Positions 1 to 50,489 of a stretch of 64,000 nucleotides of DNA are shown piece after piece. Position numbers and translations under genes: made by a program. Every line of letters starts with the position of its first letter. The first letter of the stretch is position 1. Source of the DNA: Planctomycetota bacterium. Lineage in GTDB: Bacteria > Planctomycetota > Phycisphaerae > SM23-33. The notes beneath the pieces are model-generated. The model had not been told where the DNA came from. It saw only the letters and a list, made by a program, of their open reading frames with translations, and made no database searches. Where the stretch lies: contig JACRIL010000102.1 in the NCBI GenBank assembly GCA_016235825.1, positions 751 to 64,750 on the forward strand, read 5' to 3'.

Positions 1-292
1 GAATGATCTGGTCGGGCAGCAATTGCTTGTATCGGAAGGACTCGCCCATGTAACGCGGAGTGATGTAGACGAGATTTCCGACCCTGCAACTGATATTTCC
101 GCCCGCGGAATCCGACAGGTGCCTGTCATAGATAAGGCCGCCGATCTCCAGGATGGTGTTGCGGGGATTCTTCAGGCTGTGTCTGCACACCGCGCAGCTC
201 CCTGGCCGGGAAGGAATGGAGTTGGCGATCACCCGACGGACCACGTCCTCGATGAGATTTTGATTCATTGGATTGTTATTACTGGTTGTCAT
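1..292 (-). CDS. class II aldolase/adducin-domain protein (MtnB/FucA-like), N-terminal part only; gene runs off the window start
   Basis: Absent from the ORF track because there is no stop in the window. Reverse translation from ATG 292..290 gives MTTSNNNPMNQNLIEDVVRRV...ILEIGGLIYDRHLSDSAGGNISCRVGNLVYITPRYMGE. GGNIS.R....ITP is the class II aldolase N-terminal signature. GGAGA SD lies upstream. The start is 11 nt after the RLP stop. ORF 23..361(+) is its shadow. Confidence 0.6.
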   Translation of the reverse strand, partial: MTTSNNNPMNQNLIEDVVRRVIANSIPSRPGSCAVCRHSLKNPRNTILEIGGLIYDRHLSDSAGGNISCRVGNLVYITPRYMGESFRYKQLLPDQII

Positions 293-303
293 GTTTATCT
301 CCA

Positions 304-1617
304 TCATTTCAGGTCGAAGAGCTTTACCTGCCGGCCCTTCGTGTCTCCCCACAGGTCATAAGCGGCCTTGACCTCGGGTGAACTGTCCGCCATTTTCGCG
401 TAAGGAACGCCCTTAACCGCGGCGTCGATCACCTGCCGCATCGCCTTGGCGCCCAGGGTCGGGCCCATGGGGTGGCCGTGGATCGCTCCTCCGCATCCGA
501 TGATGCAGTCGATGCCCAGGTCCTCGACGACGGAATGCACGTTGCCGTTGTTGATGCCGCCGCCGGGCATGGGGAACGAGCGTTTGATGCTGCCGAACTC
601 GCAGGTCAGCGCGTTGGCGATCAACATGTGTTTTTCTCTGAAGAAATTGAATTTGCCGTAGGGGGAGGGATACACGACGATGTCCGCTCCGGCCAACCTG
701 GCCAGCTTTCCAAGGACCAGGTGCGAGCTCAGGCCGGAATAATGGGACTCGTAGAGCACGCCCGCGAAATCCAGGTGGGCAAGGATGGGCACGTTGATCT
801 CGGGGTCGTCGGCCAGGCTTTGCAGGACGGAATACCCGGCGGTCAGGAAGTTCAGCATGACCGCGTTGACGCCCATTTTGACCGCATTTTTCGCGTTCCG
901 GATGGCTTCCGTCGCGTTATTCGTCACATTCACCGTGAAAAGGGTGTGCTCGCCGGTCTCCCGAAATACCTTTTCCTCAGCCTTCATGTACAGCTCGACC
1001 CTTTTTGCCATTGGGCAGAATGGCGGATCCGCGATCAGCTCGTCGTCCTTGATAATGTCGACGCCGCCCAAAGCCGCCTGATAGAACAGTTTCGCTCCCA
1101 CCTCGGGCGTATATCCCGTGCACGGCTTGATCATGTTGTTCAGAAGCGGGCGACCTTGCACGCCTAAAATCTTTCGCACCCCTTCAACGCCGAACTTCGG
1201 GCCTTTGAACCCTTTCATGAAATAATCCGAAAATTTGAGGTCGAGCAGTTTCAGCCTGCCGCACATGGAGATGTTCCCGATGACCGTCGAGAGCAGCATG
1301 GGGATCTGGGAGCCGAAATTGACCTCCGGGTAAGCGACCTGCAGGACAAAGGACCTGCTTTCGACGCCTTTGGGGAGTTCGAACTCGTAGGCGGGCACTT
1401 CCAGGACGCTCACGACCTTGCCGCAGTACTTTTTCCTGATCTCGGCGGTTTCCTCCGGAACCTGGACCCATGTGCCCGTGGTCTGTTCCACGGCGAGGGC
1501 CGCCGCGAAAACATTGATATCCGTCGCAGGCGGCACTTCCACCAGGTAGGTCGCAATGGTGTAGTCGCCTTTTGAGGCCGTTTCAGGTGAAATGAAGAAC
1601 TGATCCAGGATTCCCAT
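304..1617 (-). CDS. RuBisCO-like protein (form IV RuBisCO large-subunit homolog)
   Basis: Start taken at the internal ATG (MGILDQFF) with GGAAAG upstream. RuBisCO large-chain motifs are GRPLLNNMIKP, GGVDIIKDDE (carbamyl-Lys/metal site) and GCGGAIHGHPMG. Positions equivalent to K177, R295 and S379 appear substituted (IKPC, AHLD, PGGG). Confidence 0.85.
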   Translation of the reverse strand: MGILDQFFISPETASKGDYTIATYLVEVPPATDINVFAAALAVEQTTGTWVQVPEETAEIRKKYCGKVVSVLEVPAYEFELPKGVESRSFVLQVAYPEVNFGSQIPMLLSTVIGNISMCGRLKLLDLKFSDYFMKGFKGPKFGVEGVRKILGVQGRPLLNNMIKPCTGYTPEVGAKLFYQAALGGVDIIKDDELIADPPFCPMAKRVELYMKAEEKVFRETGEHTLFTVNVTNNATEAIRNAKNAVKMGVNAVMLNFLTAGYSVLQSLADDPEINVPILAHLDFAGVLYESHYSGLSSHLVLGKLARLAGADIVVYPSPYGKFNFFREKHMLIANALTCEFGSIKRSFPMPGGGINNGNVHSVVEDLGIDCIIGCGGAIHGHPMGPTLGAKAMRQVIDAAVKGVPYAKMADSSPEVKAAYDLWGDTKGRQVKLFDLK

Positions 1618-1648
1618 CGTTACTTTCCTTCTATCATGATGAACATTG

Positions 1649-2632
1649 TTATTTACAGATGGCCTCGCGCAGAAGCCTTGACGATTCCGTCGCATCGCCC
1701 TTTCGGATGACCTCGGCGATTCTGTCCAGCCCCATTTTCTCGAGCAGGCCCCTCAGGCCGTTGACCCAGGCGATGGATTCCTCGACCGCCCGCAGGCCGT
1801 TCTCCCGGTAGGGAAAGATGTCCAATGTGTAGTAATCGTCGTAACCCGTCCGATCGAGCCAGTACAGCATCTCGAGCGCCTCGATGGTGTGGACGGACCC
1901 GAACATCATGTCGTCGTCCCAGTCGCCGTAATTGTCGTTGATGTGGATGTAAAAAAGCCTTTTGCGCCCGCCGCTGTTGACCATCGCCACGGCTTCAGCG
2001 GGGTTTTCCTGTGCCGCCGAGGAATGTCCGCTGTCTATCAGGATTCCGACGTTGTCCCTGCCGATGGTGTCGACCAGCAGGACCGTGCGTGGCGCGTTGT
2101 TCGTGAAGATGTGCGTGCGCGGCTCTTTCTGCTTGTATTCCACGCAGATCTTGACGTCCTTCCTGTGGTCCGCGCACTGCCGGACGCCTTCGATGATCTG
2201 CTCCCACGCTTCGAGGTAATCGGCCTGGAAGGCATAATCGTATCCGTCCTGCCCGAGCCAGACGTCGACCTTGTCGCAGCCGACCCGCGCCGCCATGTCC
2301 ATGGACTTTTTAACCTCATCCGCGGCGGCCCTGCGGATCGACGCGTCCTTCGAAGTGAAGCTTCCTTTCCCCCATTTGGCTTGAGTCCAGAGGTCCGGCA
2401 CCATCATCGAAACCGCCAGCCCGGCGTTCTTCAGGCAGACGCTGATTTCATCAAAGTTTTTTTCGTTGACGTGCCAGTTTCCGACCAGCTCTATTCCCTT
2501 CAACTCCTTCACCTTCGACGCCAGGGCGATCATCTCCGGAACGGTCCTGTTTGTGCCGTAGCCCGACAGACAATACCGGTCTGCGCAAGAGCCGAATGGC
2601 GGGAGACACGCGCCGAACTTCAACTTTTTCAT
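1649..2632 (-). CDS. sugar phosphate isomerase/epimerase, xylose isomerase-like TIM barrel
   Basis: Start at MKKLKFG. Family-typical metal-site strings are VDVWLGQDGYDY, ICVEYKQKEP, GILIDSGH and HINDNYGDWDDD. It lies 31 nt upstream of the RLP gene on the same strand. Confidence 0.75.
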   Translation of the reverse strand: MKKLKFGACLPPFGSCADRYCLSGYGTNRTVPEMIALASKVKELKGIELVGNWHVNEKNFDEISVCLKNAGLAVSMMVPDLWTQAKWGKGSFTSKDASIRRAAADEVKKSMDMAARVGCDKVDVWLGQDGYDYAFQADYLEAWEQIIEGVRQCADHRKDVKICVEYKQKEPRTHIFTNNAPRTVLLVDTIGRDNVGILIDSGHSSAAQENPAEAVAMVNSGGRKRLFYIHINDNYGDWDDDMMFGSVHTIEALEMLYWLDRTGYDDYYTLDIFPYRENGLRAVEESIAWVNGLRGLLEKMGLDRIAEVIRKGDATESSRLLREAICK

Positions 2633-2839
2633 GCCTGTCCTCTTTGAATGTTTATTAAAAAAAGTGCAGAATTCTTTATGAATGATGAATGGCACATATC
2701 GCCAGCAGAATTGTGATTATCTCAAAGACGGCCGGAAATTCAAGCATAATTCGTTTTCCCTTGTTCATTTTCCCGGTTCTGCCGCTCCGAATTCGGCTGA
2801 GGCCTTGCCCGGCCCGGCCTGACCGGTGATAATCAGATT

Positions 2840-4030
2840 GTGAGCGAGGAGCGCCTTTTTATCGGGCTGTACAGCGGGCCTGCCGCCGACGGGATAGACG
2901 CGGCCCTGGCGTCCGTCGTCGGCGCCGGCGAGGCGATATCGGTCAGGCAGGTTTTGGCTATTCACCACGAATTGCCAGATCAGGCCCGCAGATGGGTCCT
3001 GATGTTCGGCGCCGGTCCGCGCGAACCCATGCCAAACCAGGGTCAGGCCGGCTCGCTGGGCCCGTCGGGCGTGGCGGTGGGTCTTGCCATGCTCGACCGC
3101 GACCTGGGCCAGGCATTCGCGTCGGCCGCCGAGGAACTGCTGGCCGCCGCTGACGTGCAGGCACAGGACGTCTCGGCCGTCGGCATGAGCGGCCAGGCCA
3201 TCGCGCACATCCCGCCCGACATATCCCGCCCGACGGGCGCGGGCCTGGAACTCGGCTGCCCGGCCATCGTGGCAAGAAAGATCGCCAGGCCGGTCGTCGC
3301 GGAATTTTCCAAATGCGACATCGCCGCAGGCGGACAGGGCGGGCCGATCTGTGCCTGGGCCGACTGGATACTCATGCGGCACGAGACGCTCAGCCGGGCC
3401 GTCGTCCATTTGGGCGGCATCGCCTCGCTGACCTTCGTGCCCGCCGCCGCACAGGCCTGCGATGTCGTGGCATGGGACGTCGGGCCGGGCACCTGCCTGC
3501 TGGACGACCTGGCCCACAAGCTGTTCAACAGGCCCTTCGACCACGACGGCGGCATCGCCTCGGCCGGCAAGGTCAACCCAGCCCTGCTCAACGAAATGAT
3601 GTCGCATCCTTACTTCCAGCTTCCGCCGCCCAAGACCACCAGCCGCAACGAATGGGGCGCATCGCACGTCTGGCGGGTGCTCAACGCCGCCCAAAAGCAC
3701 GCCTGCGACGGGGCCGATCTGCTGGCCACCGTAGCCGAATGTTCGGCGATGCTGATCGCAAAGGCCCTGGCCGGCCTGACCGAAAGGCCGCACGAGATAA
3801 TCCTCTCCGGCGGCGGGGCCATGAACATTTCGCTGGCGGGAAAAATCAGAAAGCTCATGTCCCCGTGCAGCACTTACACGGTCGAGCGATACGGTTGTGG
3901 CATCAGGTCGTACCGGGCCGTGTGCATGGCCGTCCTGGCCGCGGCAAGGCTCGACGGCATTCAGATATCCTGCCCCGCCGCCACAGGCTCGCCTGTCCCG
4001 GCAACCCTCGGTTCACTCACCCTGCCATGA
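2840..4030 (+). CDS. anmK: anhydro-N-acetylmuramic acid kinase
   Basis: GTG start. The N-terminus LFIGLYSGPAADGIDAAL matches the AnmK GLMSGTSxDGxDxAL motif. The C-terminal ILSGGGAMN is the ASKHA-fold motif. Length is 396 aa. Confidence 0.8.
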   Translation: MSEERLFIGLYSGPAADGIDAALASVVGAGEAISVRQVLAIHHELPDQARRWVLMFGAGPREPMPNQGQAGSLGPSGVAVGLAMLDRDLGQAFASAAEELLAAADVQAQDVSAVGMSGQAIAHIPPDISRPTGAGLELGCPAIVARKIARPVVAEFSKCDIAAGGQGGPICAWADWILMRHETLSRAVVHLGGIASLTFVPAAAQACDVVAWDVGPGTCLLDDLAHKLFNRPFDHDGGIASAGKVNPALLNEMMSHPYFQLPPPKTTSRNEWGASHVWRVLNAAQKHACDGADLLATVAECSAMLIAKALAGLTERPHEIILSGGGAMNISLAGKIRKLMSPCSTYTVERYGCGIRSYRAVCMAVLAAARLDGIQISCPAATGSPVPATLGSLTLP

Positions 4031-13870: not shown

Positions 13871-14087
13871 CGCTTCAGGGTTTCTGCCGTGTCCGACAGG
13901 CGGTTAGATTGAAAGGCCGATACGCCCGTTTCGGGAGGCAAGCGCGTGTTGCTCCGGCGACAGCCAGCCGCCCACTTGAAATAACGGGTCTTTCAAGCAG
14001 CCGCCACCGGCACAAAGGCGGACGCCCGGGCAATTTGGACGATGCACCTCTGTGCATCAGCCCACGGCTTGCCGTGGGCTTTTTTTT
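13871..14087 (+). ncRNA. candidate ~220-nt structured small RNA (family unassigned), or a terminated leader upstream of prfB
   Basis: Bounded by the promoter above and a strong intrinsic terminator. Long-range pairing 13899-13918 / 13986-14005 (GGCGG..TTGAAAGGCC with GGGTCTTTCAA..CCGCC). Internal hairpins CCCG-TTT-CGGG and GATGCAC-CTCT-GTGCATC. No convincing ORF. Confidence 0.45.
14059..14087 (+). terminator. Rho-independent terminator
   Basis: AGCCCACG-GCTTGC-CGTGGGCT followed by an eight-T run. Confidence 0.8.
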
Positions 14088-32211: not shown

Positions 32212-32403
32212 AGGCTCGAAGAGCCGGTAGACAGTAGCCGTAGGCGTAAGCCTACGGTACGGATTGCTCCAGGATAAAGAGCCTCGGAGAGGCGACAGAA
32301 ATTTCTGAAAGTCTGTGCCGCCTCGTCGAGGCTCAAATCATAATGGGCCTGAATTCCGGAGGCTTACGCCTCCGGCTACTCTCTTCCAACCCTTCGGGTT
32401 TGG
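32212..32403. repeat. ~190-bp foldback built from two inverted family-1 units flanking a central imperfect hairpin
   Basis: The 32212-32262 unit is ggctcgaagagccggtagacAGTAGCCgtaggcGTAAgcctacgg. The central hairpin is 32278-32334 (GAGCCTCGGAGAGGCG...CGCCTCGTCGAGGCTC). The reverse complement of 32355-32403 is acccgaagggttggaagagAGTAGCCggaggcGTAAgcctccgg. Confidence 0.75.
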
Positions 32404-42390: not shown

Positions 42391-43170
42391 ATGCCCAGAA
42401 GCGCCGCACAAGCCGTCGCCCGCCGCCGCGAGCTGGTGAATATACTGGCCCGCAGGCAGAGCCTCAGCATCGCCGATGCGGCGGGCCGTTTCGGCGTCAA
42501 CGGGATGACGATCCGGCGGGATATGAAGATGCTTCAGGACTCCGGCGCGGTCCTGCGCTGCTACGGCGGGGCGGTGGCGGCGCAGAGGATCACGTTTGAA
42601 TTCGCCTTCGACGAGCGGCGCCGCAGCCGGCTGGCCGAGAAACGGCGGATCGGCAGGGCGGCAGCCGGGCTGATCGGGGACGGTCAGACCGCTTTTCTCG
42701 ACACGGGCACGACGACGCTGGAGGTCGCGCGGGCCATCGTGGCGCGAGGCATCGCCTGCCGGATAGCGACTAGCAGCCTCGTAATCGCCAGTGAGCTGTG
42801 GGGGCGAGAGCAGATCGAACTGGTTCTTTTGGGCGGACAGGTGCGGCGGGGCAGCCCCGACCTGGTAGGCCCGGGCACGGAATTGATGCTGGACAAGCTG
42901 AGCGCCGATTTCGCCTTTTTGGGCAGCGAAGGCCTGGACGTGGCCCGCGGCAGCTTTGCAGACGATCCTCTGGCGGCGCAGGTGGCAGGCCACATGGCGG
43001 CCAATGCGAAGAAAACGGTCGTGGTCGCCGATCACTCCAAGCTTGGCAAGGTCGGCTCGGTGCAATACCTGCCGGTCGGCGACATGGATGTGCTGGTTAC
43101 CGATAAGGCAGCCCCGGCAGAGATCGTCGCGGCCCTGCGACGAAACAAAGTAAAGGTTGTCGTAGTTTAA
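42391..43170 (+). CDS. DeoR family transcriptional regulator
   Basis: N-terminal HTH RRRELVNILARRQSLSIADAAGRFGVNGMTIRRDMKML plus a C-terminal sugar-phosphate sensor domain. Confidence 0.85.
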   Translation: MPRSAAQAVARRRELVNILARRQSLSIADAAGRFGVNGMTIRRDMKMLQDSGAVLRCYGGAVAAQRITFEFAFDERRRSRLAEKRRIGRAAAGLIGDGQTAFLDTGTTTLEVARAIVARGIACRIATSSLVIASELWGREQIELVLLGGQVRRGSPDLVGPGTELMLDKLSADFAFLGSEGLDVARGSFADDPLAAQVAGHMAANAKKTVVVADHSKLGKVGSVQYLPVGDMDVLVTDKAAPAEIVAALRRNKVKVVVV

Positions 43171-43201
43171 AAATTCCAGTTTGACATATCAGGAGCCTTT
43201 T

Positions 43202-44011
43202 ATGGATGGACGCGAAATTAGGTTGAAGCGGCTGATGGGCAGCGGCAGAAGCGTTGTAATCGCCATCGACCACGGGCTTTTTGACGGGCCCATTGAGGCG
43301 ATGGAAGACCTGCCGGCGACCGCGGCGAAGATCAACCCAGTCGTAGACGCGGTGCTGCTGGCCCCGGGGATGCTGCGACACTGCTTCCCCGTCTTTGCCG
43401 ATCAGAAGCGGCCGCTTGCGGTTGTTCGGCTGAACTGGAACACCGTTTATTGCTTCCATTGGAAGTACACGCAGGCACACAGCGTCGAGGCGTACGGCGT
43501 CGAAGACGCCCTGCGGGAAGGCATGGACATAGCCCTGGTGTCGCTGACGCTGCAGACCGGCAGCGAGGATCGCGACGCGGCCAACGTGGAAATCTTCAGC
43601 CGGCTGACAAACCAGGCGCACAGGCTGGGCATCCCGGTCATAGGCGAGTATTTCCCCACGCGGCACGGCGAATTGTCACCTGAGCAACTGCACGAAAGCG
43701 TATTGGCCGGCAGCCGCATAGTGGCCGAACTGGGGGCAGACTCTATCAAGACATTCAACACGTGCAGATTTGCCGAGGTCGTGCGCGCCTGTCCGGTTCC
43801 GGTCCTGGGGCTGGGGGCGGAAAAGCTGCCGACGCCCAAGGCGGCTCTGGAACTGGCCGCCAGTGAAGTCGCTGCCGGCGCGGCCGGCGTGGTTTTCGGA
43901 CGCAACGCCATTCAGGTGGAAAATCCGTTCGCGTTTCAGGCCGCTTTATGCGACGTGGTAAGGAAAGGAGCGCAGGCAGATGAAGCCGTCCGCAAATACA
44001 ACATCGGCTGA
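43202..44011 (+). CDS. class I aldolase, DhnA/LsrF family
   Basis: ATG 6 nt after AGGAG. Motifs VVIAIDHG and GADSIKTFNT (Schiff-base Lys context). About 270 aa. Confidence 0.7.
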   Translation: MDGREIRLKRLMGSGRSVVIAIDHGLFDGPIEAMEDLPATAAKINPVVDAVLLAPGMLRHCFPVFADQKRPLAVVRLNWNTVYCFHWKYTQAHSVEAYGVEDALREGMDIALVSLTLQTGSEDRDAANVEIFSRLTNQAHRLGIPVIGEYFPTRHGELSPEQLHESVLAGSRIVAELGADSIKTFNTCRFAEVVRACPVPVLGLGAEKLPTPKAALELAASEVAAGAAGVVFGRNAIQVENPFAFQAALCDVVRKGAQADEAVRKYNIG

Positions 44012-45392
44012 GTATCTCGGTTTCGAGGACGTTGCCTACGATCGCGACTGGTGCCGCGCAGACCTGTCGCAGGTGCCCAATGTGATTGTCAAACCGCCCG
44101 GCCCCAAGAGCAAAAAGATGCACGACGCCACGAAACGCGTCTACAAGGGTCTTTCGGGGCAGGTCAAGTTGTTCCCGGTCTGCTTCAGCGAGGGCAAAGG
44201 CGTAACCCTGACCGACGTGGACGGCAACACATACCTGGATTTTTCCAGCGGCATCTACGTTACAACGCTGGGGCATTGCCATCCCAAGATCAGCGCCGCC
44301 GTCGCCCACTGGGCCGGCCGGCTGATGAACTGCCACGACTTCACCACGCCGGTCAAAGAGGCTCTCATGGCCAAGTTGGTCGATGTCATGCCGGGCGACC
44401 TCAACGGCGTGCAGCTTTACGACAGCGGGACTGTGGCGGTGGAGGCCGGGCTTCGCATCTGCCGGGCGGCGACGGGCAAAACGGAATTCCTCTCGTGCTT
44501 CATGGATTTCCACGGCAAGAGCCTGGGGGCGGTTTCCTGCGGCCGCATGAACGGCATGTACGCCTCGACCCGCATGCCGGGCTTTTACATGCTTCCGCGG
44601 CCGGACACCTACCGGCCGCTCTGGACGAGAGCCGACGGCACGCTCGACACCGAGGCATACCTGGAATTCTACGACAAGGCAATTGTGGATGGCACCACCG
44701 GCCAGGTCGCCGCGTTCGTGCTCGAGCCGATCCAAGGCTGGGGCGGCACGATCATCCCGCCGGACGATTTCTTCCCCAAGCTCCGGAAATTCTGCGACGA
44801 GCGAAAAATCCTGCTGATGGCCGACGAAGTTCTGACCGGCACCGGCCGCACCGGCCAGTGGCTGTGCATGCAGAATTGGAACGTCCTGCCGGACGTGGTT
44901 GCGCTGGGCAAGGGGTTCGGCAACGGCTTCCCGGTTACGGCGTGCATAGTCCGCGAAGGCATCAAGGAAAACTTCGAGAAGATCAGCGCATCGAGCAGTT
45001 ACGGCGGCAACCCGATGGCCTGCGCGGCGACCCTGGCGAGCCTTCAGGTGATCGAGGAGGAAAATCTGCTCGAAAACGCCCGCCACCTCGGCGCGATTGC
45101 CCTCAAACGCATGGAACAGATGAAGGCCCGGCACAAGATCATCGGCGACGTGCGGGCCAAAGGTTGCCTGATGGGGATCGAACTGGTCAAGGACCGCAAG
45201 ACCAAGGCGCCTTTCGACGAGGCCGGCAGAATGGTTTACGCCAAGGCATTCGAGAGAGGCCTGGCGTGGATACCGGCCGGCCACATATTGAGGCTCAGCC
45301 CTCCGATCATCATGAACGATGACGAACTGCTCAAAGGCCTGAACATCATCGACGAGGCGATAGGCGAGACGGAAAAGGAGATGGGATACTGA
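43980..45392 (+). CDS. class III (acetylornithine/GABA-type) aminotransferase
   Basis: LLMADEVLTGTGRTG and LGKGFGNGFP (PLP Lys). AAGGAG SD. Confidence 0.8.
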   Translation: MKPSANTTSAEYLGFEDVAYDRDWCRADLSQVPNVIVKPPGPKSKKMHDATKRVYKGLSGQVKLFPVCFSEGKGVTLTDVDGNTYLDFSSGIYVTTLGHCHPKISAAVAHWAGRLMNCHDFTTPVKEALMAKLVDVMPGDLNGVQLYDSGTVAVEAGLRICRAATGKTEFLSCFMDFHGKSLGAVSCGRMNGMYASTRMPGFYMLPRPDTYRPLWTRADGTLDTEAYLEFYDKAIVDGTTGQVAAFVLEPIQGWGGTIIPPDDFFPKLRKFCDERKILLMADEVLTGTGRTGQWLCMQNWNVLPDVVALGKGFGNGFPVTACIVREGIKENFEKISASSSYGGNPMACAATLASLQVIEEENLLENARHLGAIALKRMEQMKARHKIIGDVRAKGCLMGIELVKDRKTKAPFDEAGRMVYAKAFERGLAWIPAGHILRLSPPIIMNDDELLKGLNIIDEAIGETEKEMGY

Positions 45393-46534
45393 TGAGGACC
45401 GTCCGCTTTGGAATAATCGGCTGCGGTCTGATGGGGCGAGAGTTCGCCAGTGCCGCCGCCCGCTGGTGCCACCTGCCGGAGATGAAGGTCCGGCCCCAGA
45501 TCGTCGCCGTCTGTGACGCCAAACCCGAGCCGATGGAATGGTTCAGTCAAAATTTTCCGTCCATAAAACTGGCGACGACCGACTACCGGCAGATACTGGC
45601 CGATGAGTCCGTGGAGGCGGTGTACTGCGCCGTGCCGCACAACCAGCACAAGGATGTTTACTGCGACATCCTCGCGGCCGGCAAGCATCTCATGGGCGAA
45701 AAGCCCTTTGGCATCGACAAGCTCGCCAACGACGCGATCAACGCAGCCATAGCCGCGCATCCCGGCCTGCTGGTGCGGTGCAGCAGCGAGTTCCCGTTTT
45801 TTCCCGGCGCCCAGCGGATCGCCAGGATGCTGGATGCCGGGGCGTTCGGAAAGATAATTGAAGTCGCCGGCGGCCTGCTCCACTCGTCGGACCTGGACCT
45901 CGACAAGCCCATCAACTGGAAGCGGATGATCGAGTTCAACGGCGAATACGGATGCATGGGCGACCTGGGGATGCACGCCTGCCATTTTCCATTCAGGGCC
46001 GGCTTCATTCCTCGCAACGTCCGGGCCATCCTCAGCAAGATCGTAACCGAGCGCCCGGACGGCAAGGGCGGGCGCGCGGCCTGCCTGACGTGGGACAACG
46101 CCACGCTTTTCTGCGAGGCCGCCGAAAGCCCGGACGCCGACGGATTCCCGCTTGCGCTCAAGACGCACCGGATTGCGCCGGGCGAGACAGACACGTGGTA
46201 CATTGAAATCCTGGGCGCGAAGATGTCGGCGAGGTTCTCGACCAAGAATCCGCGCCGGCTGGAGGTGATGGAATACCGCAACGGCGTGCAGGCCTGGCAG
46301 CAGATAGACACCGGGCAGGACACGGCCTTCAAGACCATCACCGGCTCGATCTTCGAGTTCGGATTCTCCGACGCGATACTCCAGATGTGGGCGGCGTTCC
46401 TGCACGAGCTGGCCGAAGGCAGACCGGCGGGGCGTTTCGCCGGATGCGCCACGCCGCAGGAGGCGGCGCTGAGCCACAGGCTCTTTACCGCCGCCCTGGA
46501 ATCGCATAAAAATCACGCGACGGTTGCGTTATAA
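45392..46534 (+). CDS. Gfo/Idh/MocA family oxidoreductase
   Basis: MRTVRFGIIGCGLMGREF and HLMGEKPF. The start overlaps the upstream stop (TGATG). Confidence 0.8.
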   Translation: MRTVRFGIIGCGLMGREFASAAARWCHLPEMKVRPQIVAVCDAKPEPMEWFSQNFPSIKLATTDYRQILADESVEAVYCAVPHNQHKDVYCDILAAGKHLMGEKPFGIDKLANDAINAAIAAHPGLLVRCSSEFPFFPGAQRIARMLDAGAFGKIIEVAGGLLHSSDLDLDKPINWKRMIEFNGEYGCMGDLGMHACHFPFRAGFIPRNVRAILSKIVTERPDGKGGRAACLTWDNATLFCEAAESPDADGFPLALKTHRIAPGETDTWYIEILGAKMSARFSTKNPRRLEVMEYRNGVQAWQQIDTGQDTAFKTITGSIFEFGFSDAILQMWAAFLHELAEGRPAGRFAGCATPQEAALSHRLFTAALESHKNHATVAL

Positions 46535-46544
46535 AGGATGGCAA

Positions 46545-47951
46545 ATGGCGGAACGACGACCACGAGTTGGATTGCTAGGCCTGATGCTGGAACTTTACGA
46601 CACGCTTGCGCCGCAGTTGCGTGCAGATCGCGAGAACTGGGTCCGCGCAAGCCTGCTGCCGGCGCTGGCGCCCGCGGCCGACGTGGAATTCCGTAGGGCC
46701 GTGGCGTCGGCAGCCGACATCCGCGCGGAGATCGGCCATTTCGTCGAGGCAAAGGTTGACGCGGTTCTTGTGGTCTGCCTGTCGTATTCACCCAGCCTGA
46801 ACACGGCCGAGCCGCTGGCCCGCTGCGGCCTGCCGGTGATCGTCTGGAATACCCAGGAACTCTGGGCCGTGGATGAAAACTACGGCCCGGCGGAGCTTAC
46901 GGCCAATCACGGCGTGCACGGCACGCAGGACCTCTGCAGCGTGCTGACGCGGATGGGCGCGGCGTTTGAATATGTAACCAGCCATGTCCGCGACGGCCGG
47001 GCTACGTCGGAACTGGGCCGATTCTTCAACGCCGCTGCGGCAGCGACCGATCTACGTCGGTTGCGAGTGGGGCTGCTTGGGTACGCATTCCCCGGCATGG
47101 GCGATTTCGCCATCGAGCCTTCGCGATTCACAGCAACGCTGGGGCCGACAGTCTGCCCGCTGACGGTCGATGAATACATCCGCCGAGCCGCCTCGGCCGC
47201 CGAGTCGGATGTGCAGGCCATGGTCGACGACTACCGCCGCAGTTACGACCTTGCCGTCGATCTGGCGCCGGCCGATCTGGATGCTACTGCGCGGGCCGAG
47301 CTCGCCCTGCGGGGCATGGTCGCCGACAACAAACTGGACGCGATTACTTACCAATTCCTGGCTTTCGGCGAAGACGAACGGACCGAGACCGTCCCGTTCG
47401 TCGCCGCCAGCCGAATGATGAGCGAGGGCGTTGGCTTCGGCGGAGAGGGCGACGTCATCGGGGCCGCCGGGGCGTGGCTGCTGCACCGGCTCTGCCCGCC
47501 CGCCACGTTCAGCGAGATATTCACCATCGACTTCGCCGGCAACAGCCTGCTGATGAGCCACATGGGCGAGGCCAACGTCGCCATGATTGAACAGGGGCGC
47601 AAGGCGAACATGGTCGCCCGGCCGTCGCCGATTACGCGGACCCGCAAGCGGCAACTGGCGCTGCGGTGGAGTTTCCGGCCCGGCCCGGCGACCCTGTTTG
47701 CATTGGTTCAGGGGCCGGGCGGGCGATGGCGATTCATCGTCAGCAAAGTTGGCATCGTGCCTTTTGAGCCTCGGCCGACGCTGGCCGTGCCGCAGTTCAA
47801 GATATTGCCGGCACCCGGCGACGTGCGCGGCTGGCTGACCCGCTATGCAAAGGCTGGCGGACCACACCACAACGCCGTCTGTCTCGGCGACGCACGCGAG
47901 CAACTCCTCGCCGTCGCGAGGCTCGTCGGCGCAGAACTGGTCGAGGTATAA
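46545..47951 (+). CDS. L-arabinose isomerase (AraA) family protein
   Basis: GVGFGGEGDVIGAAG compares with the AraA GYGFAGEGDWKTAAL. LMSHMGE compares with LGSHMLE, so the metal ligands are retained. AAGGA SD. Confidence 0.65.
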   Translation: MAERRPRVGLLGLMLELYDTLAPQLRADRENWVRASLLPALAPAADVEFRRAVASAADIRAEIGHFVEAKVDAVLVVCLSYSPSLNTAEPLARCGLPVIVWNTQELWAVDENYGPAELTANHGVHGTQDLCSVLTRMGAAFEYVTSHVRDGRATSELGRFFNAAAAATDLRRLRVGLLGYAFPGMGDFAIEPSRFTATLGPTVCPLTVDEYIRRAASAAESDVQAMVDDYRRSYDLAVDLAPADLDATARAELALRGMVADNKLDAITYQFLAFGEDERTETVPFVAASRMMSEGVGFGGEGDVIGAAGAWLLHRLCPPATFSEIFTIDFAGNSLLMSHMGEANVAMIEQGRKANMVARPSPITRTRKRQLALRWSFRPGPATLFALVQGPGGRWRFIVSKVGIVPFEPRPTLAVPQFKILPAPGDVRGWLTRYAKAGGPHHNAVCLGDAREQLLAVARLVGAELVEV

Positions 47952-47954
47952 CGC

Positions 47955-50489
47955 ATGTATCTTGGCCTGGACCTGGGAACCACCAATATCAAGGCCCTGC
48001 TTGTGGATACGGGCGGCAAGGTGGCGGCGTCTTCGTCTGTCACCGTCGGCCTGAAAAACGGGCCCAACGGCGCGGTTGAGCAGGATATCGGGGAAATCCG
48101 GGCCGCGGTGCTGAAGGCTATTTGTTCGCTTGGCGATAAGGATCGGCTCGCCGCGGTTCGCGAGATCGGTGTTTCCAGCCAGGGCGGCTCGCTTCAGATA
48201 ACGGGTGCCAATGGAGCACCCATCGGCCCGGTGATCAGTTGGCTGGACGGCAGGGGGCAGCCTTATGACGAGGCCTTCAACATGGAACTGGGCCGCGAGT
48301 GGTTTGCCCGGCACGTCGGCCACGGCGGCAGCGACGTGGCGGTGGGCCAGTTGCTTCGGCTGCGGAAAGAGCGGCCGGAATTGCTCGCCAGGCCAAATCG
48401 GGTGGGCTTCGTCGGCGATTTTATTGTGGCGAGTCTGTGCGGTCGGGCCGCGCACGATGCCTCATCTCTGTCGATTGCCACGCTGCTTAACCCGCAATTG
48501 CGGGCTGCCGACCCGGATCTGTTGAAAAAACTGAAACTCGACGGGGATCAGTTGCCGGCGCTGTTGTCGCCGCGAGAATGCGCCAGCGTGCTCAGCGCCG
48601 AAGTCGCCCGCCAAACGCACCTGCCCGCCGGTACGCCGGTCTCGGCGGCGGTCCACGATCAATATGCCGCGGCCTTAGGTTCAGCGGCGGTCCACGCGGG
48701 CGACGTGATGGTCGGGACCGGGACCGCGTGGGTTCTGCTGGCGGTTACGGACCGGCTGATGCCGCCGGTGCTCGATTCGGCGTTTGTCTCACCCCATCCG
48801 GCCGAAGGCCTGTACGGACAGCTTGCCTCGCTGGGCAACGGCGGGGCCGCCTTGAGCTGGCTGGTGAAAATTTTAGAGTTGGACGAGACCGTTCCCGGCG
48901 CAATTGAAAATATGCTAAAAGCCGCGCCCGCTGGTTGCGACGGCCTGCGGTGCCGGCCGTTTCTGGCCTATTATCAGCCGGCCGGCCTGCCTGCGAACGT
49001 GAACGGCTGTTTCACCGGCCTCAAACTGTTCCACACGCGGGCGCATCTGGTCCGCGCAGTGGTGGAAGGCCTCGCGTGCGAGTTGGCACGGCATCTGCGT
49101 TTGCTGAACGCCGCCGGCCTGGAAACCCGCCGCCTGATCCTGTGCGGCGAGGCGGCCGCAGGCGAAGAGACCCCGCAAACAATCGCTGACATAACCGGCT
49201 TGCCGGTGGCGTGCGCGGCGGTGCGACAGACCAGCGCGTTCGGCGCCGCGGTGATCGCCCGGGGCCTGGCCGAACATTCCGAAAGCCTGGTTCAACTGGC
49301 CGAATCGATGGCATCGTCCCGCCGCATCTTTACGCCGGGCGACAATGCGGCTCGCTATCGGCAGATTATGGCCGAATACATTGCGTCTCTGCCTGCCGAA
49401 AAAGCGACGGAACCAGCGGCATCGGCCGGGCGCGTCCATCTGCATCACGTCTTCGACTACACCGACGTGGACCGTGCATTCTGGGCCGAGCATCTTGAGG
49501 ATTGGCTGCCGAAAAAGATCATCGACGTGCATATGCACGTCAGCGATCCGGCAAACAGGCGTGAGCCGATGACCGAAGAGGGACGTCGTCAGTATTGGGT
49601 GTCGGAGGTCTTGGAACCGATGGACGTTCGCAGCGCGGACCGCTGCCTGGCGACTGTTTTTCCCGGCCGGCAGGTCGAGTGTGTGGCGATGAGCATGCCC
49701 AGTCTGGAATTCGACATCGAGGCCGAGAATGAGTACGTCCGGACAAGCTGCCTGGAACGCGACTGGCATGGCCTGCTTATGCTTCGGCCGCAGATGAAGG
49801 CAGCCGACCTCGATGCCGCACTTGGCAAACCGGGAATCATCGGAGTAAAGCCATACTACACGCTTATCAGCCGCAATCCGCTCACCCGCGACGAGCACAT
49901 CGAGGCAAGCATCTTCGACTTTCTGCCACACCATGTCCTGGAAGTCCTCAACGCCCGCCGCGCATGGGTTACGCTGCACGTGCCCAAGGCCGGCCGGCTG
50001 GGCCACCCGGACAACATCCGCGAAATAAAGGAAATCCGCCGCAGGTATCCCCGCGTGATCCTGGTCGTCGCGCACCTGGGCCGCTGCTACACCGAGCCGC
50101 ACGCGCAGGAGGCCCTGCCGCTTCTGGCGGATGATCCGGGTCTTTACTTCGACAACTCGGCCGTGCTCAACCCCGCCGTCCATCGCCTGGCCCTGAAATG
50201 CCTCGGGCCGGACCGCATCCTTTACGGCAGTGACAATCCGGTGTTTTTCATGCGAGGCCGGAGGCAGTGGCAGGGAAAAACCTACATCAATCGGACCAAC
50301 TACCCGTTTTTCTTCAACAAGCGGCGGGAGCCTCCCGAGATCGAGGCCGGCTACACGCTTTATATGTATGAAGCGCTGCTCGCCGTCAAAATCGCCTGCC
50401 GCGACGCGGGGTTGACGGGCGATCAGGTGAATGCCATCTTCCACGACAACGCCGAGCGGCTTATCCGGCCCGCAAATAAAGGCGGGTGA
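47955..50489 (+). CDS. fusion protein: FGGY-family carbohydrate kinase (N) + amidohydrolase-2-type metal hydrolase (C)
   Basis: N-terminal MYLGLDLGTTNIKALLVD and VMVGTGTAWV (FGGY). From about residue 500: IIDVHMHVSDP (HxH), VVAHLGRCY and ILYGSDNPV (amidohydrolase-2 pattern). A single uninterrupted 844-aa frame. Confidence 0.75.
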   Translation: MYLGLDLGTTNIKALLVDTGGKVAASSSVTVGLKNGPNGAVEQDIGEIRAAVLKAICSLGDKDRLAAVREIGVSSQGGSLQITGANGAPIGPVISWLDGRGQPYDEAFNMELGREWFARHVGHGGSDVAVGQLLRLRKERPELLARPNRVGFVGDFIVASLCGRAAHDASSLSIATLLNPQLRAADPDLLKKLKLDGDQLPALLSPRECASVLSAEVARQTHLPAGTPVSAAVHDQYAAALGSAAVHAGDVMVGTGTAWVLLAVTDRLMPPVLDSAFVSPHPAEGLYGQLASLGNGGAALSWLVKILELDETVPGAIENMLKAAPAGCDGLRCRPFLAYYQPAGLPANVNGCFTGLKLFHTRAHLVRAVVEGLACELARHLRLLNAAGLETRRLILCGEAAAGEETPQTIADITGLPVACAAVRQTSAFGAAVIARGLAEHSESLVQLAESMASSRRIFTPGDNAARYRQIMAEYIASLPAEKATEPAASAGRVHLHHVFDYTDVDRAFWAEHLEDWLPKKIIDVHMHVSDPANRREPMTEEGRRQYWVSEVLEPMDVRSADRCLATVFPGRQVECVAMSMPSLEFDIEAENEYVRTSCLERDWHGLLMLRPQMKAADLDAALGKPGIIGVKPYYTLISRNPLTRDEHIEASIFDFLPHHVLEVLNARRAWVTLHVPKAGRLGHPDNIREIKEIRRRYPRVILVVAHLGRCYTEPHAQEALPLLADDPGLYFDNSAVLNPAVHRLALKCLGPDRILYGSDNPVFFMRGRRQWQGKTYINRTNYPFFFNKRREPPEIEAGYTLYMYEALLAVKIACRDAGLTGDQVNAIFHDNAERLIRPANKGG

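Follow-up and report, generated by a model that had tools for sequence, protein, structure and literature searches.

This study concerns the gene of a form IV RuBisCO-like protein (RLP) and its two close neighbours at the beginning of a 64,000-nt stretch of contig JACRIL010000102.1 (assembly GCA_016235825.1, Planctomycetota bacterium, SM23-33). The whole stretch is called the window, and its strand and coordinates serve as the reference. Three genes lie on the minus strand. The first (1649..2632) encodes a xylose-isomerase-like TIM barrel protein of 327 aa (PF01261). It is followed by a 31-nt spacer (1618..1648) and the RLP gene (304..1617, 437 aa), which was identified by Pfam, NCBIfam and PDB matches, an active-site map, a clade signature and a tree. 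After a spacer of 11 nt (293..303) comes the gene of a class II aldolase-fold Zn enzyme. The translation of its 5' part (<1..292) covers 97 codons of 246, and the rest runs off the window start. Positions, strand and both gaps are exactly those given in an earlier sequence-only reading of this DNA. Purine-rich ribosome-binding sites precede all three genes: AAAGAGGA for the TIM barrel, GAAGGAAAG in the 31-nt spacer for the RLP, and GGAG in the 11-nt spacer for the aldolase. The mechanical list of open reading frames gave the RLP 463 aa and an overlap with the TIM barrel gene; the ATG at 1617 is backed by 15 of 15 aligned homologues. In the source metagenome-assembled genome (MAG), annotated as 'Planctomycetes bacterium', the RLP is named 'ribulose 1,5-bisphosphate carboxylase'.

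The complete aldolase gene was found on a 4826-nt Logan contig (L001:4054-4794), which is identical to the window across the overlap and supplies the full 246-aa product. The sequence-only reading had the operon continue past the window start. This was right for the aldolase gene itself, and no further gene was found: the sole extension, the Logan contig, stops 32 nt past the aldolase stop codon, and the block of relatives ends with the aldolase gene. No terminator-like site was found within the three-gene block on its own strand. No Rfam element, including the S-adenosylmethionine (SAM) riboswitch, was detected in the operon region of the window or in the loci of relatives. From spacing and conservation, we believe that the three genes are co-transcribed as one unit, which may serve as a sugar-phosphate catabolic module.

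Active site and affiliation of the RuBisCO-like protein

The RLP passed both superfamily thresholds (PF00016, 168.4 bits against a cut-off of 30.1, E 2.9e-49; PF02788, 41.8 bits against 20.7, E 1.4e-10). Its residues were mapped by a MAFFT alignment with spinach RbcL (numbering verified on PDB 1ir1/8ruc) and with MtnW of G. kaustophilus. The IKP lysine (K175 of RuBisCO, K164 of the RLP) and the KDDE carbamate/Mg site (K201=K190, D203=D192, E204=E193) are kept, as the sequence-only reading had seen by eye. The alignment also bore out the three substitutions proposed there, at K177 (C166), R295 (L282) and S379 (G352), and added T173 to M, H298 to A and H327 to V. Further residues retained, beyond that reading, are E60=E44, T65=T49, W66=W50, N123=N115, H294=H281 and K334=K322; G381, G403 and G404 are kept as well. 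The metal and base catalytic residues are invariant throughout the clade of the RLP. By this pattern, the RLP has an intact enolisation centre and an intact proximal (P1) phosphate site but lacks the residues that hold the C5 phosphate of ribulose 1,5-bisphosphate (RuBP). The loss of R295, H298 and H327 of the C5-phosphate site fits a 1-monophosphate substrate.

A genuine CO2-fixing RuBisCO acting on RuBP would agree with the NCBI name of the protein and with the retention of K175, K201, D203, E204, H294, K334, E60 and N123. However, T173M, K177C, R295L, H298A, H327V and S379G leave an incomplete catalytic set, whereas the bona fide RuBisCO representatives in the same alignment carry the complete catalytic and substrate-binding set. 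The form II/III NCBIfam models remained far below their cut-offs (TIGR03326, 249.3 against 497; NF003252, 249.6 against 438; NF010002, 120.3 against 489 bits), and the identity to spinach RbcL was 28%. Neither phosphoribulokinase nor AMP-pathway genes adjoin the RLP. Because the residues of the C5-phosphate site are lost, the protein should not be able to act as an RuBP carboxylase. In agreement with the earlier doubt about this reaction, we regard RuBP carboxylation as very unlikely, and we give next to no credence to a true RuBisCO at this locus.

The closest characterised and solved relative of the RLP is MtnW (2oek, E 2e-89, about 39% identity). The curated MtnW cut-offs were missed (NF007095, 387.9 against 409 bits; TIGR03332, 346.5 against 513.6 bits). 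Lys98 of G. kaustophilus MtnW, at RuBisCO position 123, reportedly serves as the general base, a finding attributed to Imker et al. 2007. In the RLP this position is Asn115, and it is Asn in all clade members, whereas the five best PDB matches (2oek, 2oej, 2zvi, 3fk4 and 4nas, all MtnW-type) carry Lys123, Gly60 and Ser334. Since the general-base Lys is replaced by Asn, the RLP is not expected to be an MtnW; this argument is sharper than the neighbourhood alone. The MtnW/YkrW enolases of 2,3-diketo-5-methylthiopentyl-1-phosphate (2OEK from G. kaustophilus, 2ZVI from B. subtilis) share with the RLP the fold, the carbamylated Lys/Mg site, K175 and H294. They have likewise lost the distal phosphate site and likewise partner a class II aldolase-fold protein. 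They differ in having Lys at 123, Gly at 60 and Ser at 334, where the RLP has Asn, E60 and K334, and the RLP has neither methionine-salvage neighbours nor an S-box riboswitch.

When 1.84 billion cluster representatives were searched exhaustively with HMMER, 2155 superfamily clusters were obtained, and 19 diagnostic positions were tabulated for 98 full-length representatives and references. The signature E-T-W-N-M-K-C-K-D-E-H-x-x-[VIL]-K was shared by the window RLP, its closer relatives and about 10 further 50%-identity clusters. The MtnW-type signature is G-[TS]-W-K-I-K-x-K-D-E-H-P-x-L-S, and that of bona fide RuBisCO is E-T-W-N-[IT]-K-K-K-D-E-H-R-H-H-K. A rough neighbour-joining tree (Kimura distances, 100 bootstraps, no labels for the GOS, AMC and NonPhoto clades of Tabita) joined the window RLP with the Latescibacterota RLP at a support of 100 and this pair with a Bacillota group at 94; the support of a Chloroflexota-type group was 87. 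The window RLP fell inside the smallest clade of all MtnW-signature sequences in 0 of 100 bootstraps, the MtnW set itself being monophyletic in only 33 of 100. A genome scan with the window RLP returned a Latescibacterota MAG as the only close relative, and a metagenome scan with it returned no further relatives of at least 65% identity.

The other characterised RLPs are more distant. The short (about 380 aa) RLPs of the 3qfw type, which we take to be IV-DeepYkr (the R. rubrum group), branch separately and have Arg at 334 and a gap at position 177; 3qfw itself scored 122 bits against the window RLP. An IV-DeepYkr identity was rejected on this separate branch, on the other signature and on the lack of MtnP, MtnA or cupin neighbours. 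The OiaX model NF042437 gave 172.4 bits against a cut-off of 700, and the neighbouring kinases are FGGY or PfkB rather than DUF1537; an OiaX identity was therefore rejected too. The C. tepidum RLP is also distant. An MtnW identity was rejected on residues, curated cut-offs, phylogeny and context. Thus the protein, which lies below the MtnW and OiaX cut-offs, was placed in no characterised clade, as the sequence-only reading had supposed.

The data assign the RLP to a large and apparently uncharacterised assemblage of RLPs, in which E60, N123, K175, H294, K334 and the carbamate/Mg site are retained. Judged by its residues, the active site of this assemblage is closer to that of real RuBisCO than the active site of any characterised RLP examined here. 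The PDB matches included no solved structure from within the assemblage. Its public naming as 'RuBisCO' or 'MtnW' is probably wrong, as the residue pattern argues against both. The members P0001, P0016, P0021, P0032 and others are named 'ribulose 1,5-bisphosphate carboxylase' (NCBI) or '2,3-diketo-5-methylthiopentyl-1-phosphate enolase' (JGI, NCBI).

Gene neighbourhoods in relatives and the partner enzymes

In total, 177 loci were collected, and their flanks were screened by tblastn with reference neighbours. Three groups were found. In group (a), the RLPs are about 72% identical to the window RLP, and the partners are 63% (TIM barrel) and 55-58% (aldolase) identical. The order TIM barrel, FGGY kinase, RLP, aldolase was found in the Latescibacterota MAG (JAZDJA010000077, L004), where a terminator-like hairpin lies ahead of the block, and in a second Latescibacterota lineage (L174). 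Shorter blocks consist of FGGY kinase, RLP and aldolase (L168) or of RLP and aldolase (L175 to L177). A PfkB kinase lies ahead of the RLP in L166, and a histidine phosphatase follows it in L167. The link between the genes claimed by the sequence-only reading was thus found again, as RLP-aldolase or TIM-kinase-RLP-aldolase, in at least three further lineages. At L169:1-8693, and also in L170 and L171, a TIM-aldolase pair is accompanied by a PL8 polysaccharide lyase and three large upstream proteins (416, 970 and 664 aa); the three large proteins of L169 had no Pfam or NCBIfam match and hence gave no substrate clue.

The Latescibacterota kinase scored 385 bits (E 5e-115) on the rhamnulokinase model TIGR02627, and its nearest homologues with organism names are annotated rhamnulokinases (42-44% identity). 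Rhamnulokinase phosphorylates O1 of a 2-ketose.

Group (b), the Bacillota type, comprises RLPs of 57-63% identity from Thermacetogenium, Moorella, Syntrophomonadaceae, Ignavibacteriales and some Dehalococcoidia. In this group, 51 loci carry UPF0261 and PEP-hydrolase-like genes, usually with a ComB-type phosphatase and often with a GlpP-type antiterminator. In L002:9067-15252, L005:7807-15706 and about 50 other loci, the RLP stands with two PEP-hydrolase-like genes, UPF0261, the ComB-type phosphatase and the GlpP-type antiterminator. We found no functional assignment for this cassette of UPF0261 kinase, RLP and phosphatase. For the UPF0261 domain, the catalytic activity that was reported first is an ATP-dependent phosphorylation (MarK, PMC12624787).

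Group (c), the Chloroflexota type, holds RLPs of 53-58% identity from Anaerolineae, Dehalococcoidia, Caldisericota and Bathyarchaeota. An XylB-like FGGY kinase was found at 80 loci, half of which also have a class-III aminotransferase (e.g. L039:6749-11272 and L075:4456-11272). At three further loci a class II aldolase adjoins the aminotransferase. In L165:2109-4382 (minus strand), a class II aldolase and a class-III aminotransferase (HemL-like) are fused into one protein of 757 aa, whose gene is divergent from a block of RLP, MFS transporter and FGGY kinase.

The three-gene context of the window was confined to group (a): beyond the small clade of the window RLP, about 155 related loci were covered, and none had it. 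A kinase beside the RLP is a theme common to all three groups (RhaB-like FGGY or PfkB in (a), UPF0261 in (b), XylB-like FGGY in (c)). This theme agrees with a P1 site that is retained and a distal site that is lost.

The TIM barrel protein scored 100.6 bits on PF01261 (cut-off 31.1, E 1.5e-28). Its best PDB match was 3ktc (E 4e-60, full length); class I xylose isomerases and L-rhamnose isomerase came next. Two NCBIfam isomerase models hit under their cut-offs (xylA_Arthro, 98 against 447 bits; RhaI_grampos, 68 against 531 bits); the UlaE/SgbU ketose-phosphate 3-epimerase models reached about 19-20 bits, far below these, and the OtnI model 24 bits. The XylA residues E181, K183, H220, D255 and D257 have their equivalents in the protein, with Asp in place of E217 and His in place of D245. 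The protein is thus probably a two-metal aldose-ketose isomerase, judging from its family and its ligands. The structure 3KTC (333 aa, deposited as 'xylose isomerase', a putative sugar isomerase) has its metal and Lys motifs in common with the window protein; we know of no assigned function for it. The two differ at the XylA metal ligand D245: 3KTC has Asp, whereas the window protein has His234 (1931..1933), and His occurs in all four orthologues (window, L004, L169 and L174). The orthologues show an E-D-H pattern recalling ketose 3-epimerases beside the XylA-type second-metal ligands.

The assignment of the third gene to the class II aldolase family, which the sequence-only reading had made from the part in the window, was corroborated by the full product. 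The 97-aa fragment gave 16.9 bits on PF00596, under the threshold of 22.2; the 246-aa product carries this domain, together with the FucA-type Glu73 (SRE) and the three zinc ligands His92/His94 (HAH) and His155 (HG). FucA Tyr113 is replaced by Asp. The best model was PRK06357 of NCBIfam (128 bits, E 2.9e-37), under its cut-off. Lower scores were given by the FucA-type models (54-68 bits against cut-offs of 250-400), MtnB (45 against 137), AraD-type models (33-66 against 251-389), OtnC (51.5 against 250) and RhaD (25 against 170). The close family is small, with 27 matches at E <=1e-10.

The pairing of an RLP with a class II aldolase fold recalls MtnW/MtnB. A route like methionine salvage with a non-homologous front end was considered, in which isomerase and kinase would supply a ketose 1-phosphate (deoxy or methylthio), the aldolase-fold protein would turn it into a 2,3-diketo 1-phosphate as an MtnB-type dehydratase, and the RLP would tautomerise this product in the manner of MtnW. 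The close relationship to MtnW described above agrees with this route, as do the names of several relatives, called MtnW by JGI; the histidine phosphatase of L167 and the ComB-type phosphatase of the Bacillota group recall MtnX. However, the general base of MtnW is Asn in every clade member, the window RLP stands outside the MtnW clade in 100 of 100 bootstraps, and the aldolase is far below the MtnB cut-off. The class II aldolase-fold gene is the only methionine-salvage-like neighbour: no mtnK, mtnA, mtnX or mtnD was found near the RLP, and no SAM riboswitch. Moreover, the hosts of the wider clade are mostly anaerobes, in which the O2-dependent end of the pathway makes little sense. We consider this route unlikely.

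The RLP might also act outside the pathway of its neighbours. It could have a regulatory role, act in stress like the C. tepidum RLP, or repair metabolites and be co-located by chance. The same RLP clade does occur in three quite different neighbourhoods, and orthologous TIM-aldolase pairs without an intervening RLP exist in L169 to L171. Yet four independent lineages have the RLP between or beside the same partners, at distances of 0-31 nt, and no member of the clade deviates in the catalytic metal and base residues. The chance of such an unlinked role appears very small.

A proposed ketose 1-phosphate pathway

We tentatively propose, with somewhat less than even confidence, that the isomerase and a kinase make a ketose 1-phosphate, that the RLP enolises and then isomerises or epimerises it, and that the aldolase cleaves the product to dihydroxyacetone phosphate and an aldehyde. 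First, the TIM barrel would isomerise an aldose, probably a deoxy-hexose or a pentose, to a 2-ketose. Next, a kinase would phosphorylate O1 to give the ketose 1-phosphate; in Latescibacterota the candidate is the rhamnulokinase-family FGGY kinase encoded between TIM barrel and RLP. The RLP would then bind the monophosphate through its retained P1 site (T65, W66, K334, G381, G403 and G404), as RuBisCO binds C1 to C3 of RuBP. With K164 and H281, the centre of carbamylated Lys190 and Mg2+ (D192, E193) may abstract the C3 proton, the Lys190 carbamate acting as base, to form a 2,3-enediolate. Reprotonation without CO2 addition would yield an isomer or 3-epimer cleavable by the aldolase. Finally, the FucA-like Zn aldolase would split this product into dihydroxyacetone phosphate and an aldehyde.

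RuBisCO itself misprotonates its enediolate at C3 to form xylulose bisphosphate. A further chemical precedent is the R. rubrum RLP, which isomerises a ketose 1-phosphate (PMC6302742). This IV-DeepYkr protein, a 5-methylthio-D-ribulose 1-phosphate 1,3-isomerase, acts on a ketose 1-monophosphate and moves protons via enediolates, which is the chemistry proposed here. It differs in its distant sequence and in its partners, MtnP, MtnA and a cupin instead of TIM barrel, FGGY kinase and aldolase.

As a set, the families would follow the scheme of phosphorylative L-rhamnose and L-fucose breakdown, except that an RLP step precedes the aldolase. The RhaA/RhaI-RhaB-RhaD and FucI-FucK-FucA pathways likewise use an aldose-ketose isomerase (RhaI also belongs to PF01261), a rhamnulokinase-family FGGY 1-kinase and a Zn class II aldolase that yields dihydroxyacetone phosphate and an aldehyde. 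They differ in having no RLP before the aldolase. In addition, the window TIM barrel belongs with 3KTC and is an equivalog of neither RhaI nor XylA, and the aldolase is neither a RhaD (25 bits) nor a FucA equivalog. The sequence-only reading had described the context as a hybrid of MtnW/MtnB and OtnI/OtnC. We replaced this analogy by the isomerase, FGGY kinase and class II aldolase logic, because in the Latescibacterota clusters the gene of a rhamnulokinase-family kinase stands between those of the TIM barrel and the RLP and the Otn models gave only 24 and 51 bits. The tetronate pathway (OtnI/OtnK/OtnC) also combines a TIM isomerase with a class II aldolase-fold enzyme for acid sugars, but its kinase is DUF1537, it has no RLP and the similarity is very low. 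An Otn assignment was rejected on scores and context.

Several observations weigh against the proposed pathway. The isomerase, the FGGY 1-kinase and the class II aldolase are encoded together in L004 and L174, but the window operon has no kinase. No rhamnulokinase-type gene of the source contig was among the best 120 matches to the Latescibacterota kinase, a search that a more distant kinase could escape. Elsewhere in the window, FGGY kinases are represented by a single XylB-like gene, which is 46 kb from the operon and part of another cluster. In L169 to L171, the TIM barrel and aldolase genes (78% and 76% identity to L004) are directly adjacent with neither RLP nor kinase. The aldolase-fold protein may be an aldolase, a dehydratase, an epimerase or a decarboxylase, because all equivalog scores are far below the cut-offs and FucA Tyr113 is Asp. 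If isomerase, kinase and aldolase already complete a pathway, the need for an RLP step is unexplained. Finally, the retained E60, N123 and K334, tied to CO2 addition in RuBisCO, are not required for simple enolisation.

In RuBisCO, E60, N123 and K334 are in contact with the carboxyl group of the reaction intermediate. In the yiaK-S/ula logic of E. coli, an FGGY kinase, a decarboxylase, a TIM 3-epimerase and a class II-fold 4-epimerase act together. By analogy, the RLP could be a decarboxylase or transcarboxylase of a beta-keto-acid phosphate, as in apiose catabolism. The kinase would phosphorylate a 3-keto acid sugar, the RLP would decarboxylate the product to a ketose phosphate, the TIM barrel would be a 3-epimerase, and the aldolase-fold protein a 4-epimerase or an aldolase. 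The carboxyl-contacting residues are invariant in the clade and lost in MtnW, and the cluster families match the yiaK-S/ula pathway except for the decarboxylase. On the L-ribulose-5-P 4-epimerase subfamily model, the aldolase-fold protein scored 65.8 bits, on par with the FucA models. RLP decarboxylases exist according to the summary of Carter et al. 2018 in PMC6302742. The apiose RLPs (OiaX, a 3-oxo-isoapionate-4-phosphate decarboxylase, and a transcarboxylase/hydrolase) are also encoded in a sugar catabolic operon downstream of a kinase, but this kinase is DUF1537 and not FGGY, and the substrate is a branched acid sugar. Furthermore, the window RLP is far below the OiaX cut-off, the kinase is clearly rhamnulokinase-like rather than LyxK-like, and the TIM barrel prefers aldose-ketose isomerase models (98 and 68 bits) to UlaE/SgbU (about 19-20 bits). 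No dehydrogenase or lactonase that would make the keto acid is in the cluster. We regard this alternative as rather improbable.

Because the retention of E60, N123 and K334 is unexplained, there is a chance of carboxylation-type chemistry on a monophosphate. The whole assemblage, which keeps these residues, lacks only the distal phosphate site and always adjoins a kinase, might carry out C-C chemistry, namely carboxylation, decarboxylation or carboxylative cleavage of a ketose 1-phosphate, as a 'monophosphate RuBisCO'. We see only a slim chance of this. If true, such a reaction would be widespread in anaerobic Chloroflexota, Bacillota, Caldisericota, Bathyarchaeota, Latescibacterota and Planctomycetes.

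Significance of the locus and other features of the window

To our knowledge, only a few RLP chemistries have been described: the MtnW enolase, the R. rubrum isomerase, the apiose decarboxylase and the transcarboxylase. Each changed the understanding of the mechanism and origin of RuBisCO, and RLPs without an assigned function are already a familiar phenomenon. What appears new here is a distinct active-site signature, a distinct conserved gene context and a probable public misannotation. Full-text literature searches found no publication on this RLP clade or gene context; a description in a subscription journal is possible. The locus points to an undescribed route of sugar-phosphate breakdown rather than to CO2 fixation or methionine salvage. 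It offers a concrete, testable handle on a large, apparently unstudied RLP assemblage of at least about 10 50%-identity clusters from many anaerobic phyla. The four-gene Latescibacterota block narrows the substrate search to ketose 1-phosphates from deoxy-hexoses or pentoses, so that reconstitution in vitro is realistic. If the proposed ketose 1-phosphate pathway is true, it would add a new step of sugar catabolism in polysaccharide-degrading Planctomycetes and Latescibacterota and would reveal which partial reactions of RuBisCO were recruited.

Upstream of the TIM barrel gene lies a divergent intergenic region of 207 nt (2633..2839), shared with an anmK gene. A consensus scan gave one promoter-like site per direction, of which 2743..2716 (minus strand) would serve the operon and 2805..2833 (plus strand) would serve anmK; the number of such sites was not above the expectation from shuffled sequence, and the sites are positional candidates only. 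The gene at 2840..4030 (plus strand), divergent from the block, encodes an AnmK-family kinase (PF03702, E 1.5e-65), yet the best NCBIfam AnmK equivalog gave 289 bits against a cut-off of 387. It was considered as the pathway kinase and found unlikely, being absent from the Latescibacterota clusters and resembling an ordinary anhydro-MurNAc kinase. The gene is not kept beside the RLP in relatives.

A second sugar cluster lies at 42391..50489 on the plus strand. Besides a DeoR regulator and an aldolase of the DeoC/LacD type (LsrF/ADH-synthase-like), it encodes a class-III aminotransferase, a Gfo/Idh/MocA oxidoreductase and an AraA-like isomerase, as well as an 844-aa protein in which an XylB-like FGGY kinase is fused to an Amidohydro_2 domain. 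The pairing of aminotransferase and XylB-like kinase echoes the neighbours of the Chloroflexota-type RLPs. Two kinds of RNA element were detected elsewhere in the window. A 6S/SsrS RNA lies at 13878..14028 on the plus strand (49.2 bits against a gathering score of 46.4). The Acido-Lenti-1 RNA motif occurs twice on opposite strands, about 100 nt apart, at 32212..32257 (minus) and 32356..32401 (plus), with 47.6 and 43.9 bits against a gathering score of 37.

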